Shown: positions 57,983-62,666 of the stretch, piece by piece | Numbering within the stretch: the first letter of the stretch is position 1 | Layout of the letters: each line of letters begins with the position of its first letter | Assembly: GCF_016026235.1 (NCBI RefSeq) | Contig: NZ_CP065613.1 | DNA length: 64,000 nucleotides | Origin: Escherichia coli | GTDB taxonomy: Bacteria > Pseudomonadota > Gammaproteobacteria > Enterobacterales > Enterobacteriaceae | Reading direction: 5' to 3' (one strand) | The notes under the pieces: generated by a model | Database searches by the model: none | Seen by the model: only the letters and a program-made list of their open reading frames with translations | What the model was told of the DNA's origin: nothing | Position numbers and translations under genes: made by a program

Positions 57983-58238
57983 GTTCATAAGATTGAGGGG
58001 TTGGTGACCGGGAAAATGTAGACATGTAGTGCCTAATCACCCCAGTTCAAACCCATCCGCATCCCGCCATGCCGGAAACTTCACACTGTACTCCCAGGGA
58101 AAAATCACGTAATGCTGCTTTTTTTGTACTAAATAATTCGCATTTTATGTTCAATAATTGAGGTGTTCCTTATTACCTAAAGCTGTTTTTCATTGCTTAT
58201 ACATGATCAAATACTCATTGCATAATTAAGGGGGCAAA

Positions 58239-59065
58239 ATGGAACTTAAAAAATTGATGGAACATATTTCTATTATCCCCGATTACAGGCAAGCCTGGAA
58301 AGTGGAACATAAATTGCAGATATTCTATCTGTTAACTATTTGCGCCGTTATTTCTGGTGCATAATGCTGGGAAGATATAGAGGATTTGGGGAAACACAAC
58401 CCGATTTTTTGAAGTGATATGGTGATTTTGAAAATGGTATTCCTGTTCACGATATCATTGCCAGAGTTGTATCCTGTATCAGTCCTGAAAAATTTCATGA
58501 GTGCTTTATTAACTGGATGCGTGACTGTCATTCTTCAGATGATAAAGACGTCATTACAATTGATGGAAAAACGCTCCGGCACTCTTATGATAAAAGTCGT
58601 CACAAGGGAGCAATTTATGTCATTAAAATCCGTCTTCATATTGTTTGCATGTCTCTGATGAATTTATTGATTTTACGTTTGAATGGAAAGGGCTGAAGAA
58701 ATTATGCATGGCAGTCTCATTTCGCTCAATAATAGCAGAACAAAAGAAAAATCCCGAAATGACGGTCAGATATTATAGCATTTCTGCTGATTTAACCGCA
58801 GAGAAGTTCGCCACAGCGAACCGAAATCACTGGCAAGTGGAGAATAAATTGCACTGGCATCTGGACGTGGTAATGAATAAAGACGACTTTATAATAAGAA
58901 GATGAAATGCAACAGAATTATTTTCAGGGATACGGAACATCGCTATTAATATTTCAAAGAAAGATAAGATACTCAAGGCCGGGGCAAGATGTAAGATGTG
59001 AAAGCAGCTGCGGACAGAGACTACCTCGCGTCAGTCCTTTCGGGGGCGGGCTTTCGTAATCTTGC
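58239..59065 (+). pseudogene. yafF: H-repeat-associated (ISAs1-family) transposase remnant, yafF-like, multiply frameshifted
   Basis: [26 protein letters not shown]... then stops and frame changes; fragments in ORFs 58419..58658 and 58645..58905 and a C-terminal tail near 58920..59060. Confidence 0.6.
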
Positions 59066-59228
59066 TCTGCAAGGGATGATAAAAAGTGCAACTTTATTCC
59101 ACGCAGCTATTTAGACAGCGTACAGTAAACAAACGAAAGTTGTTATTTCAATGGTCAGGGCAAGAGCATGAAGTGTTTACTACACACTATGCTCTTGTAC
59201 TGGAGTCAGGTCTTGTTTGGAGGGATAA

Positions 59229-59732
59229 ATGGTAGATATTGTCGAGGCCGATAAAACGGATATTTATTTCATTCAGGAGAGTGTTTATGGCAAAATCGGG
59301 TTGCCAGCTTTTGGTAATACAATAGGACCATCCGCACAGCAAGTTGTTAAAAAGGTATTCGCTGTCGTTAAAGAACGAGATAAGACACATGCAAAACAGA
59401 GATTATTGTTGGAATATAATGGTAACAAACTCTGGATGAATGCTATTGATGGCAGTGAAGCTATCCTACCAACAGAATTTTCTAAGCGATACGAACTTTC
59501 ATTATTCAATACTACTAATTTTGGAGAAGATCCTTTTCCTGATGTTAATTTATATAATAATATGAAATCAAGTTTTTTTGTAAGGTTTGGTGGAACATCC
59601 CATCCCGAGGCTTGGGCTATTTATAATGCAAGTACGAAAGAGGTTAAATATATAGAAACTGCAAGAGAAATTGATAAAATATTCAGTGATTTTAACTTGA
59701 GTGGTACATTGCCAATTCACATTGGTCAATGA
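59229..59732 (+). CDS. hypothetical protein
   Basis: 167 aa ORF in low-GC DNA; no recognisable motif. Confidence 0.35.
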   Translation: MVDIVEADKTDIYFIQESVYGKIGLPAFGNTIGPSAQQVVKKVFAVVKERDKTHAKQRLLLEYNGNKLWMNAIDGSEAILPTEFSKRYELSLFNTTNFGEDPFPDVNLYNNMKSSFFVRFGGTSHPEAWAIYNASTKEVKYIETAREIDKIFSDFNLSGTLPIHIGQ

Positions 59733-59798
59733 TTTTTCAAATTGTGTGATTAAATAATTGAACATTAATGATGATTTATAGCATCATTATTCTATAAC

Positions 59799-60008
59799 AT
59801 GAATAAACGGATTGAATGTGTTATGTTAAAAATGAGTTTATACGTAATAATATTGTTATTTCCCTTTCAGATTAGTGCAGCCATTACTAGCAAGGAAAGT
59901 GAGGTTGTTTCACCATTATTAATGGATGTTAATTCTTCACTAACAATGGAAAATATTTCTGAATTATCCACATCATCGGAACCATCGCAACAGGGGGTAT
60001 TTCCCTGA
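59799..60008 (+). pseudogene. 5' part of a secreted-protein gene disrupted by an IS10-like insertion
   Basis: Signal-peptide-like N-terminus (MLKMSLYVIILLFPFQISAA); reading frame runs into the IS inverted repeat and resumes at 61299 (…QQGVFP | VICTRLHPGS…). Confidence 0.55.
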
Positions 60009-61298
60009 GGGATCCCCAGAAAATTTAGTAAACCATTATCATATTGGTATACCGTTGCTGTAGAACTTTCAGCCCTGCGTCAAGTGACAGTGTGTTTAGT
60101 ATGAGTGGAGAATGTCGAATCACATTCTCCGCCAGTTTTAATAACGAGATGACTCGCCTGTGCTTCACTGTATTTGCCTGATATTTATGATGTATCCCTT
60201 TGTTTTCCAGGCTGAAACCGCTTAACCACATAATGATACTGGCTAATGTTGCGATCAGACTCAATACCGTGACCCGCCCGGATGAATGACTGGCACCAAA
60301 CCGTAGTCCAAATCCCCAGCGAGGATTTTTTTCATCCCTGAAATTTTGCTCAATTTGCATTCTACGGCTGTATAATTTCATTACCTGTTTTGGCGAGAAC
60401 TCAGTACTGTTTGTGAAAATAAACCATGGTGATTTCCCGGCAGTACGAGCTTTAGCCGTCACCGATGGTCTGGTTGCTCTTTCCTTCGAGCGTTTAAATC
60501 TACGACCTTTAGGCTTACTTTTATAAAGATAAAAATGCCCTTCATGTTGTGCATTTTTATCTCGACCCAGCAGGCCTTCACCTAAATAAATTGCTGTCGT
60601 TGATGCTTTTGTGCCTGAGTCCGACACCTTTTCCCAGCCATTACCAACATTGTAATAATGATTGCCCAGTACCCGGCAAATATAGGTCCAGCCACGGGAG
60701 CGGAGCTGTTGGAACCATCGCCCCTGAAAACCGGCATCTGTAATAACAATGACATCAGTCCCGGGGGAAAAGCACTCAGCAAGCGATTCCAGAAAACGCT
60801 CATGTACATCTGCATTCGCTGTCTGTGATGATGGAACGACACAACTCATCAACGGTAAAGAACGCCCGTCACATGCCAGGCTTGCCCGCAAAAGCTGAAA
60901 ACGAGAGGCATGATAAGCACTCCAGTCAATGAGTATCACAACACGAGACATTCCCCGCGTAATCTTTTGGGTAATTCGCTGAAAAATGGTGGAAACCTCA
61001 TTTTGCAAATGTCGATTCCCCAACAGTCGATCCACCCGCTTTATTTTGTTTTTAACTGATGCCGTACCGGTTAAATGACGCCCGATACTGGTAAGTGTGA
61101 GGGAAGCGCCATTTATTACAGCATTAGTTGCGTCAATCAGTGATTTTTGACGGTAAAGATGCAAAGGGGCCAGTATATTGTTAAGGAAATTTTGGCATAA
61201 TGAACGTGCAGGCATAGTGGTGATCTCCTTGAAATTGTTAGCACAATCAATTAGATCACATCTCACTATGCCTGTCTTGTTTTCTGGGGATTCCTCAG
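60005..61298 (-). mobile_element. IS4-family (IS10-like) insertion sequence, ~1.29 kb
   Basis: Terminal inverted repeats CTGAGG(G/A)ATCCCCAGAAAA at 60005..60023 and 61280..61298; flanking direct repeat GGGTATTTCC (59995..60004 and 61299..61308); internal 413 aa transposase. Confidence 0.8.
60025..61266 (-). CDS. IS4-family (IS10-like) transposase
   Basis: 413 aa; stretches resembling IS10 transposase (IKRVDRLLGNRHL, YSRRMQIEQNFRDEK, GFGLR). Confidence 0.8.
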   Translation of the reverse strand: MRCDLIDCANNFKEITTMPARSLCQNFLNNILAPLHLYRQKSLIDATNAVINGASLTLTSIGRHLTGTASVKNKIKRVDRLLGNRHLQNEVSTIFQRITQKITRGMSRVVILIDWSAYHASRFQLLRASLACDGRSLPLMSCVVPSSQTANADVHERFLESLAECFSPGTDVIVITDAGFQGRWFQQLRSRGWTYICRVLGNHYYNVGNGWEKVSDSGTKASTTAIYLGEGLLGRDKNAQHEGHFYLYKSKPKGRRFKRSKERATRPSVTAKARTAGKSPWFIFTNSTEFSPKQVMKLYSRRMQIEQNFRDEKNPRWGFGLRFGASHSSGRVTVLSLIATLASIIMWLSGFSLENKGIHHKYQANTVKHRRVISLLKLAENVIRHSPLILNTLSLDAGLKVLQQRYTNMIMVY

Positions 61299-61615
61299 GG
61301 GTATTTCCTGTAATATGTACTCGACTTCATCCTGGCTCTGTAATGAAACGCCAGTTATTAACCGGCTGGGGGCCTGTTTTTATAATTGGGGATGATCCTT
61401 TTTCTCTGCGCTGGATGAGTGAACATCTGGAGATCCTTAAATCGCTAAATGCCCTTGGTTTGGTTGTTAATGTTGAATCAGTAGAACGAATGGAGGTATT
61501 ACAGCAGCGGGCTGATGGGTTATTGTTATTGCCAGTTATCTGCGATAATTTCGTGCAAACTCTGCAATTAAATGCTTATCCGGTATTAATCACAGAGATG
61601 GAAATATCACAATGA
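61299..61615 (+). pseudogene. 3' part of the IS-disrupted secreted-protein gene
   Basis: Frame continuous with 59799..60004 once the IS and one repeat copy are removed; reconstructed product about 174 aa. Confidence 0.5.
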
Positions 61616-61639
61616 TTAATAACATAATTACTGCAAATA

Positions 61640-61860
61640 ATATCGTAATTTTGAAAATGGTAATCCTGTTCACGACACCATAATTAGAGTTATGTCTTGT
61701 ATCCGTTCAGTATAATTTCACGAATGCTTTATTAACTGGATGCGTGACTGCCATTCATCAAATGATAAAGACGTCATCGCAATTGATGGAAAAGCGCTTC
61801 CACACTCCTATGATAAAAGTGGTCGCAGGAGAGCGGGCTTTCGTAGTAATACCCCGACTC
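61640..61860 (+). pseudogene. second internal fragment of an H-repeat (ISAs1-family) transposase
   Basis: Nucleotide similarity to 58420..58620 (…[21 protein letters not shown]…). Confidence 0.5.
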
Positions 61861-61886
61861 TCCCCGTCCTTAAACACAACCCCCAC

Positions 61887-62666
61887 TCACCACAACCTAA
61901 ACTCATCCGCATCCTGCCATGCCGGAAACTTTTCTCTATATTCCCGCAATGCCATCATCGACAGCTCCGCATCAATGCGCGTTGCCTGATGCGCGTCGGC
62001 AGTAGCGATAATCTCGCCTTGTGGATTAATCACCCGGCTGTCACCGCGATAATGGCAGCCGTTGCCATCGCTGCCGACGCGATTGCATCCCGCCACATAC
62101 GCCTGATTCTCAATCGCGCGGGCCGTCAGCAATGCCTGCCAGTGCAGAGAGCGCGGAGCAGGCCAGTTGGCAACGTAGATGGCGAGGTCATAATCGTTGA
62201 GATTGCGCGACCACACCGGAAAACGTAAGTCGTAGCACACCAACGGCAAAATACGCCAGCCGCGCCATTCCACAATCACTCGCGCATTGCCCGCTTTATA
62301 ATGTAGATGCTCATCTGCCATGCGGAACAGATGACGCTTATCATAAAAATGTACCGTGCCGCCCGGCTCAACCAGCAAAAAGCGGTTAACCGAACCAGAC
62401 TCCGTTTGTAATGCAACACTGCCTGCAATCAGCGCATTGCACTGCTGCGCCTTAGCTGTCATCCAGTTCACTACGTCATCTTGTGCTAGCGACGAAGCTG
62501 CCGCTTCCATGGCAAAGCCGCTGGTAAACATCTCCGGTAGAACGATCACATCGCGCCCGGTAATACCTTCCAGTTGACGATCAAAATGACGCAGGTTGGC
62601 AGGGCCATCCATCCACACCAGTGGTTGCTGCAAAAGCGTAATCTTCAAACCAGGCACGGTGTACAA
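61887..62666 (-). CDS. yafV: nitrilase-superfamily omega-amidase YafV
   Basis: 259 aa ORF (true start probably a few codons in); carbon-nitrogen hydrolase fold. Confidence 0.85.

Follow-up and report, generated by a model that had tools for sequence, protein, structure and literature searches.

Why does the distal end of a T6SS island in Escherichia coli carry two 3' ends of yafV and two stretches of H-repeat transposase? In the window analyzed here (the whole stretch of 64,000 nucleotides of contig NZ_CP065613.1), the last gene of the island, the predicted T6SS phospholipase effector gene tle1 (55889-57982, plus strand), is followed by a scrap of yafV, an insertion sequence (IS) of the ISAs1 family, a short gene module, a second piece of ISAs1, and the intact resident yafV. 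The H-repeat, or H-rpt, is the ISAs1-family element ISEc1. A preliminary description of this arrangement proposed a partial duplication or a nested rearrangement at the island boundary rather than a simple insertion.

The two yafV ends

The preliminary description had called for a comparison of the region with itself. A self-blastn of 57900-62700 gave three matches, and both repeat pairs are significant. Positions 58049-58095 match 61899-61945 with 85% identity over 47 bp (E=1.7e-9). Once extended to the stop codons, the match pairs 58037-58095 with the 3' end of resident yafV at 61887-61945, with 47 of 59 bases identical, the reading frame kept, and the stop codons aligned (TCA at 58037-39 and 61887-89). 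The 195 bp common to the two ISAs1 copies (58417-58611 vs 61640-61834) are 83% identical (E=1.5e-54), and a 13-bp piece of the IS right end is identical between them (59046-59058 and 61833-61845). The doubled yafV end, its peptide, and the doubled H-repeat fragments therefore stand as first described, but their boundaries were about 10 bases off, the true ones being 58037-58095 and 61887-61945 for yafV, and 58095-59069 and 61635-61856 for ISAs1.

The scrap (58037-58095, minus strand) holds the stop and the final 18 codons of a foreign yafV (see below), truncated at the end of the IS. Its product, EYSVKFPAWRDADGFELG*, was compared with the 18-residue C terminus of resident YafV; with 18 codons and a stop only, it counts as a fragment homologous to yafV rather than as a gene. 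The resident yafV (61887-62657, minus strand) encodes a 2-oxoglutaramate amidase of 256 aa, is 98.5-100% identical to the annotated yafV of L001-L003, and is assigned to the YafV/omega-amidases by its full-length CN-hydrolase domain (PF00795, nitrilase superfamily) and the yafV-ivy-fadE synteny.

The junction tle1-spacer-scrap-IS is present in ~70 (about 1.3%) of 5,426 complete E. coli genomes. Among the carriers are FDAARGOS_943 (L001), where it is 99.9-100% identical, and JA0266. Since so many complete genomes have the same junction, the scrap is not an assembly artefact, a possibility named in the preliminary description. The scrap is decaying: RE in Pseudocitrobacter faecalis corresponds to RV in JA0266 and SV in the window. 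We found no terminator-like site in the spacer plus scrap, where promoter-like sites equal the shuffled expectation. The region has no cellular function and is a record of past recombination. No paper found in our literature searches describes a scrap of yafV at this island.

Insertion sequences and the module between them

The first ISAs1 copy (58095-59069, plus strand) is a defective, ISEc1-like H-repeat, 88-91% identical to the intact element of BL21, whose product of 378 aa matches NF033564 at E=3e-122. It has the terminal inverted repeats of the family (IRL CAGGGAAAAATCACGTAA, IRR ...CGTAATCTTGCTCTG), with matching ends in six other ISAs1 copies, and a gene for an ISAs1-type DDE transposase that is broken by an internal deletion of ~312 bp (4533-4844 of the BL21 sequence are missing), frameshifts, and stops. 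We found no target-site duplication at this copy: its left flank (...ctgtactcc) shows no relation to its right flank (caagggatg...), as would fit a later recombination or an adjacent deletion.

The second copy (61635-61856, plus strand) is a relic in which a 201-bp internal piece is joined to the right end (the last ~25 bp). It lacks the combination of both ends and a transposase gene, and is annotated "incomplete" in RefSeq genomes. It is 81-85% identical to each ISEc1/ISEc5 copy compared, the first copy being no closer than the others. A K-12-like genome (L002) and BL21 (L003) have an identical right inverted repeat and an identical stretch of 30 bp between it and the stop codon of yafV, and in the former an ISAs1 relic, presumably yafF, is annotated at this position beside yafV. 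Of the element, the final ~280 bp survive in K-12 and the whole in BL21, whereas the window keeps the two joined pieces; all three go back to a single old insertion site. The window also differs from the K-12 locus by an additional, separate ISAs1 copy that lies 3.5 kb upstream. The relic next to yafV is an older, independent, internally deleted insertion 30 bp downstream of the resident gene, unrelated to the cassette import discussed below, and the two pieces of ISAs1 stem from separate insertions by different members of the family.

Two genes lie between the ISAs1 copies. The first (59229-59732, plus strand) encodes a hypothetical protein of 167 aa, annotated as such in L001, L004, L006, and L007, that has no Pfam or NCBIfam match. 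The second, a PFL_4695/DUF2859 "integrating conjugative element protein" gene (59823-61615, plus strand), is split by ISEc60 into a 5' part (59823-60004) and a 3' part (61298-61615); its intact 162-aa version in FDAARGOS_943 matches TIGR03765 (E=2e-35) and PF11072. The ISEc60 element (IS4 family; 60005-61297, minus strand) is 99.9% identical to annotated copies and has a transposase (NF033591, E=1e-107), terminal inverted repeats, and an 11-bp target duplication, GGGGTATTTCC, at 59994-60004 and 61298-61308. FDAARGOS_943 has the empty site, and ISEc60 is a recent, strain-specific addition.

Origin of the yafV scrap

The gene tle1 (Pfam PF09994 and PF22137) is preceded by two tandem tli1a immunity genes (54823-55377 and 55362-55904, plus strand) that match the NCBIfam family Tli1a_fam (NF053804) at E=9e-62 and 6e-60. 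The presence of both Tle1 domains, the adjoining Tli1a lipoprotein genes, and the linkage to vgrG identify a T6SS Tle1/Tli1a module; a related locus (L007) has the order vgrG-DUF4123-tli-tle1. The module resembles the EAEC Sci-1 Tle1/Tli1 pair, reportedly described by Flaugnatti et al. in 2016 as a phospholipase effector and its immunity protein, in that a vgrG-linked tle1 comes after lipoprotein immunity genes of the Tli1a family where the aspV T6SS island ends, a likeness of domains and gene order only. The closest Tle1 outside E. coli is that of P. faecalis (93% of amino acids identical), the next one being at 75%.

In P. faecalis GCA_965231505.1 (L019), the T6SS cluster lies between aspV and yafV, and tli1-tle1 is followed, after 54 bp, by an intact native yafV-ivy-fadE. 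We regard yafV as native there because yafV-ivy is 98% identical to that of the P. faecalis type strain. Positions 9471-12000 of this sequence are collinear with 55560-58095 of the window at 91.5%, and the homology breaks off precisely where the first ISAs1 copy begins, at its left inverted repeat. The spacer between tle1 and the scrap (57983-58036, 54 bp) is identical at 47 of 54 positions to the spacer of equal length in L019 and arrived with the cassette. Identity to P. faecalis is 91.5% in tle1, 87% in the spacer, and 93% in the scrap, versus 79-81% in the core genes flanking on both sides (79% in hcp-vgrG and 81% in yafV-ivy-fadE). The P. faecalis-like tract starts inside the tli1a genes, at 91-94% identity, but its left edge cannot be placed, P. 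faecalis being rearranged upstream of tli1.

The scrap matches P. faecalis yafV at 55 of 59 bases (E=8e-19), whereas the resident yafV is 81% identical to that gene. At the sites that separate the P. faecalis from the E. coli allele, the scrap is of the P. faecalis type in all eight cases and of the E. coli type in none; it has four private changes and includes …CCCCAGTTCAAACCC…. The C terminus is rare. In a search among YafV proteins, for which the query was a chimeric full-length YafV, 3 of 120 clusters end in RDADGFELG. Across 100,044 species representatives, the pattern for this ending was found in P. faecalis and in one uncultured Lachnospiraceae genome, a match taken to be due to chance, and in no Escherichia representative. 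The rest of a P. faecalis-like yafV was absent from the 5,426 E. coli genomes, where all matches had at most 82.6% identity and were the resident gene. The core-gene part of the evidence for import amounts to 59 bp. We also considered as donors a set of metagenomic contigs (L010-L016) that encode the same YafV C terminus, and rejected them: their DNA is only 81% identical to the scrap, and they have no island between yafV and dnaQ.

These comparisons make it likely that the scrap is a xenologous relic of a Pseudocitrobacter-like yafV, imported together with the tli1-tle1 cassette and joined to the E. coli chromosome through the defective ISAs1. At an identity of only 91.5%, P. faecalis is to be seen as related to the donor, not as the donor. 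How could such a junction arise? In the donor, a Pseudocitrobacter-like enterobacterium, the cassette would have adjoined yafV, and an ISAs1 could have entered that gene near codon 238. A block with the distal T6SS genes, tle1, the spacer, the scrap, and the left part of the IS may then have been taken by recombination into chromosomes of E. coli in which a T6SS and the series ISAs1-hypothetical gene-PFL_4695-ISAs1 relic-yafV were already present, with the left crossover in the T6SS genes and the right one inside the IS. We give this route, with insertion in the donor followed by recombination of the block, about an even chance. An adjacent deletion mediated by the IS would give an identical junction, and an ISAs1 inside an otherwise complete yafV was found in no genome.

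Could the scrap instead have been inherited vertically? The arrangement tle1-spacer-yafV would then be ancestral in Escherichia, the scrap an old native end of the gene, and its likeness to P. faecalis a product of conservation or chance. The position of the T6SS island between aspV and yafV may indeed be ancient, and hcp and vgrG of the two species, found at this same locus, are ~79% identical, like the core genes. Yet this is just the level that tle1, the spacer, and the scrap exceed, and few E. coli genomes have the scrap, which the pattern scan did not find in the representative of any Escherichia species. We therefore hold vertical descent to be improbable.

The partial duplication initially suggested is more doubtful still. 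A block with the yafV 3' end and the H-repeat transposase would have been copied within the chromosome and then diverged, and a stretch of 3.9 kb does hold two copies of each type of sequence in direct orientation. However, the parts do not follow each other in the same order (the left side reads yafV'-IS, the right side IS-yafV), and the copies are only 80% (yafV) and 83% (ISAs1) identical, while the neighboring DNA is 97-100% conserved among strains. The second ISAs1 copy is as distant from the first as from other ISEc1/ISEc5 elements. The collinearity of tle1 and the spacer with P. faecalis and the eight diagnostic sites refute a local duplication in practice. Of the early proposal, the nested rearrangement stands: besides the scrap, there are two ISAs1 relics, an orphan two-gene module, ISEc60, and a first IS copy without a target duplication, so that no simple insertion accounts for the boundary. 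The order of the parts, their divergence, and the foreign allele contradict its other half, the duplication. The boundary is a nested mosaic produced by horizontal cassette import and IS-associated recombination.

An attachment-site duplication fares equally poorly. An integrase-driven island or ICE, of which PFL_4695 would be a remnant, would have entered the 3' end of yafV, brought a replacement end, and displaced the original. As in integrase islands at tRNA or protein genes, a diverged direct repeat of a gene 3' end brackets foreign DNA beside an intact gene, here 3.8 kb with an "integrating conjugative element protein" gene. Unlike in such islands, there is no integrase ORF or family match in 58096-61886, and the repeat, 80% identical, terminates at an IS inverted repeat without an att-like crossover core. 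The outer, "displaced" copy is a non-E. coli allele, 54 bp from tle1 as in P. faecalis, where there is no ICE. Furthermore, the junction PFL_4695-ISAs1-yafV is found in 743 genomes versus ~70 with the scrap, and K-12-like genomes without either module share the resident 3' end. At the distal junction, a search for a direct repeat of the aspV 3' end, the signature of a tRNA island, gave nothing beyond chance 8-11-mers. Finally, the yafV match is short (47-59 bp), but its significance within the region and against P. faecalis, its frame and aligned stop codons, and the ~70 independent complete genomes with the junction leave chance similarity or an assembly artefact barely credible.

Proposed cassette exchange at the island end

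If the scrap is a relic of an imported yafV, it is a marker of origin: the tli1-tle1 genes of some E. coli T6SS-1 islands would come from a Pseudocitrobacter-like genome, in which they lay against yafV, and their join to E. coli DNA would run through an insertion sequence. This would be a concrete, datable exchange of T6SS toxin and immunity genes between genera. In Vibrio cholerae, T6SS effector-immunity modules are exchanged by homologous recombination (Unterweger 2014, Kirchberger 2017, Thomas 2017; reviewed in PMC6730261). Here too, otherwise near-identical strains (L004 and L007) differ in a cassette of foreign origin that occupies the variable end of a conserved T6SS cluster. In contrast to V. 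cholerae, the right-hand join is an insertion sequence and not a conserved T6SS or core gene, and a scrap of the donor's neighboring core gene survives, pointing to the donor genus. For annotation, such features should not be labelled duplications or assembly errors; the boundary is an ordinary island-boundary scar that reveals the source of the cassette.

We tentatively suggest that the ISAs1/H-repeat at the distal end of the aspV T6SS island could serve as a portable right-hand homology for swaps of cassettes (Tle1, PAAR-toxin, Rhs), between strains and across genera. If so, the scrap would be a fossil of one inter-genus import, and the long-noted association of Rhs with H-rpt would gain a mechanistic reason. 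The idea is testable and bears on why H-repeats are so frequent where T6SS and Rhs loci are variable. Counting for the import, L004 and L007 share the defective first IS copy, which adjoins PAAR-type cargo in L004 and Tle1-type cargo in L007. Over 6 kb, the loci are 99.75% identical and have 15 differences, of which 13 fall within the IS. Counting against it, the SNPs of the IS, compared among the window, L007, and L004, form a mosaic without clean linkage to the type of cargo.

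Repeats at the right-hand edge of the T6SS island

We analyzed the right-hand edge of the T6SS island, which occupies ~35 kb between aspV (tRNA-Asp, 26826-26902) and yafV. In this E. coli chromosome segment, an rRNA operon (with tRNA-Ile, tRNA-Ala and tRNA-Asp genes) comes first, followed by dnaQ, aspV and the island; the resident yafV (61887-62657, on the minus strand) lies beyond it, ahead of ivy and fadE. At the edge itself, two tli1a genes (54823-55904, NF053804) and tle1 (55889-57982, PF09994 and PF22137) are followed, after 54 bp, by a scrap of yafV (58037-58095, minus strand) and a first ISAs1 copy (58095-59069). 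Beyond these lie a hypothetical gene (59229-59732), a PFL_4695/DUF2859 gene (59823-61615, TIGR03765) interrupted by ISEc60 (IS4 family, 60005-61297), the relic of a second ISAs1 copy (61635-61856) and a 30-bp spacer before the resident yafV.

Self-blastn of 57900-62700 bore out the two repeats of the preliminary description: the yafV 3' end (58049-58095 against 61899-61945, 85% over 47 bp, E=1.7e-9) and the H-repeat (ISAs1, 58417-58611 against 61640-61834, 83% over 195 bp, E=1.5e-54). In addition, 59046-59058 and 61833-61845 share an identical 13-bp stretch that belongs to the right end of the IS. Read on to the aligned stops (TCA, 58037-39 and 61887-89), the yafV repeat is in frame; the C-terminal peptides first proposed were right, and their coordinates were ~10 bases off. 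The tle1-side arrangement of scrap and IS is found in ~70 of 5,426 complete E. coli genomes, which rules out the assembly artefact that had been considered; FDAARGOS_943 carries it with 99.9-100% identity to the window except for one IS.

A yafV end of Pseudocitrobacter type

The last codons of the scrap differ from all five E. coli yafV alleles aligned with it. Its ending, RDADGFELG, occurs in only 3 of the best 120 YafV clusters of a 5.8-billion-protein database. We scanned one genome per species (100,044 species) with a degenerate DNA pattern for this ending and matched only Pseudocitrobacter faecalis DSM 27453 and one uncultured Lachnospiraceae genome, the latter taken as chance. The scrap is identical to the P. 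faecalis yafV end at 55 of 59 positions, against 47 of 59 for the resident gene. It has the P. faecalis base at each of the 8 sites that distinguish this allele from the E. coli one, and its 4 other differences are private. The scrap of E. coli JA0266 is intermediate (EYRV, versus EYSV), as expected for a drifting pseudogene. The remainder of a P. faecalis-like yafV was found in none of the 5,426 E. coli genomes searched.

Comparisons of tle1 give this origin independent support. The nearest Tle1 outside E. coli is that of P. faecalis (93% amino acid identity), followed by Kluyvera (75%). In P. faecalis GCA_965231505.1 (L019), hcp-vgrG lies upstream of DUF3304-tle1, which is followed after 54 bp by an intact yafV-ivy-fadE-lpcA-yafJ. 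Its positions 9471-12000 are 91.5% identical to 55560-58095 of the window, in an alignment that ends exactly at the IS left end, and the tle1/yafV spacers share 47 of 54 positions. Identity is 79% in hcp-vgrG and 81% in yafV-ivy-fadE, which corresponds to the usual between-genus divergence; this difference (91.5% versus 79-81%) contradicts a vertical relic. The yafV-ivy of L019 is 98% identical to that of the P. faecalis type strain and is thus native; the type strain is island-free (aspV, ~70 bp, yafV). The presence of a P. faecalis-type core-gene scrap in E. coli fixes the direction of transfer, from a Pseudocitrobacter-like lineage to E. coli. With identity at just 91.5%, P. faecalis is related to the donor but is not itself the donor.

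In L019, the tle1 call (10001-11887) consists of two ORFs that abut, of 392 and 235 aa; either the gene is a frameshifted pseudogene, or the sequence contains an error. Immunity gene copy number differs among carriers: the window has two tandem, overlapping Tli1a paralogues upstream of tle1, JA0266 carries three DUF3304 genes, of which one is frameshifted, and just one short gene is present at the P. faecalis locus. Elsewhere in the window, a ~63-bp element (5706-5769) is 85-89% identical to a sequence located between ivy and fadE in each of the two P. faecalis loci (L019, 13404-13466; L017, 11377-11435) and is probably a dispersed intergenic repeat.

How the junction may have formed

The most likely route would start with the insertion of an ISAs1 element into a donor-type yafV, ~18 codons from the gene end, followed by homologous exchange through a crossover in the T6SS genes and a second one within the IS. 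Compared with the intact BL21 element (NF033564), the first ISAs1 copy shows 88-91% identity, lacks ~312 internal bp and has many stops; its inverted repeats are clear, and no target duplication was found in its flanks. The same defective copy, with the hypothetical gene, PFL_4695, ISAs1 relic and yafV behind it, follows differing cargo in other E. coli loci: a PAAR-type toxin in EC444, Tle1 in JA0266 and other sequences in L006. Over 6 kb starting 25 bp into the IS, the EC444 and JA0266 loci are 99.75% identical; of the 15 differences between them, 13 are within the IS, suggesting a crossover within the element. SNPs in the IS compared among the window, JA0266 and EC444 form a mosaic without a clean link to cargo, so this step remains only suggestive. 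In JA0266 (L007, 6196-6235), the ISAs1 left inverted repeat is tandemly duplicated (19 bp, CAGGGAAAGGTCAAGTAAT twice).

Alternatively, an IS-mediated adjacent deletion would result in the same junction. The partial duplication initially proposed is contradicted by the order of the parts, the low identities of the copies and the P. faecalis-type sites of the scrap. An att duplication by an integrase is also contradicted: there is no integrase, a repeat of aspV or of a core was looked for and is absent, the yafV repeat stops at the IS terminus, and many genomes have the module without the repeat. Chance or artefact is excluded by the E-values and the recurrence across many genomes.

Already well established are T6SS islands at aspV, H-repeat/ISAs1 relics beside Rhs and yafV, and the horizontal exchange of effector-immunity modules. 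Our literature search for this scrap or a Pseudocitrobacter link found no description, and the junction is a new case of a known sort of boundary scar. The scrap has modest value as an origin marker, and it raises an idea open to testing: H-repeat elements may anchor the recombination by which cassettes are exchanged.

ISAs1 relics, the orphan module and ISEc60

In the second ISAs1 copy, a 201-bp internal piece is joined to the final ~25 bp of an element. This copy is only 81-85% identical to the first copy and to all ISEc1/ISEc5 copies compared; the two pieces are not duplicates of one another. The K-12-like and BL21 loci match its right end, and the 30 bp leading from it to the yafV stop, without a difference. 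The copy is thus the old relic that is annotated beside yafV there, yafF on the K-12 map. In two further E. coli loci (L008 and L009), additional ISAs1 copies inserted no more than a few tens of bases from this spot, leaving nested right-end remnants, with two or three IRR-like sequences within ~60 bp downstream of yafV (L008, 4890-4990; L009, 4920-4990). Such nesting shows that ISAs1 elements have inserted repeatedly, and independently of one another, immediately downstream of yafV. The spot is possibly a target hot spot, and remnants of H-repeat elements have accumulated there.

The PFL_4695-ISAs1-yafV junction is present in 743 genomes and the scrap in ~70, so the right-hand module is older than, or independent of, the Tle1 import. 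The hypothetical ORF of this module (167 aa) had no match in Pfam and NCBIfam; it is conserved and always accompanies the orphan PFL_4695 gene between both ISAs1 relics. ISEc60 is flanked by a target duplication of 11 bp (GGGGTATTTCC), and its site is empty in the otherwise identical FDAARGOS_943, whose chromosome has 38 places matching ISEc60. Only 14 of 5,426 genomes carry the element at full length, and the window's strain is probably a member of an ISEc60-expanded lineage. The left island edge is mosaic too, since the gene right after aspV (27288-27848) is ~80% identical to the lipoprotein gene at the yafT position of the K-12-like and BL21 loci, versus 92-99% for the preceding 1.3 kb.
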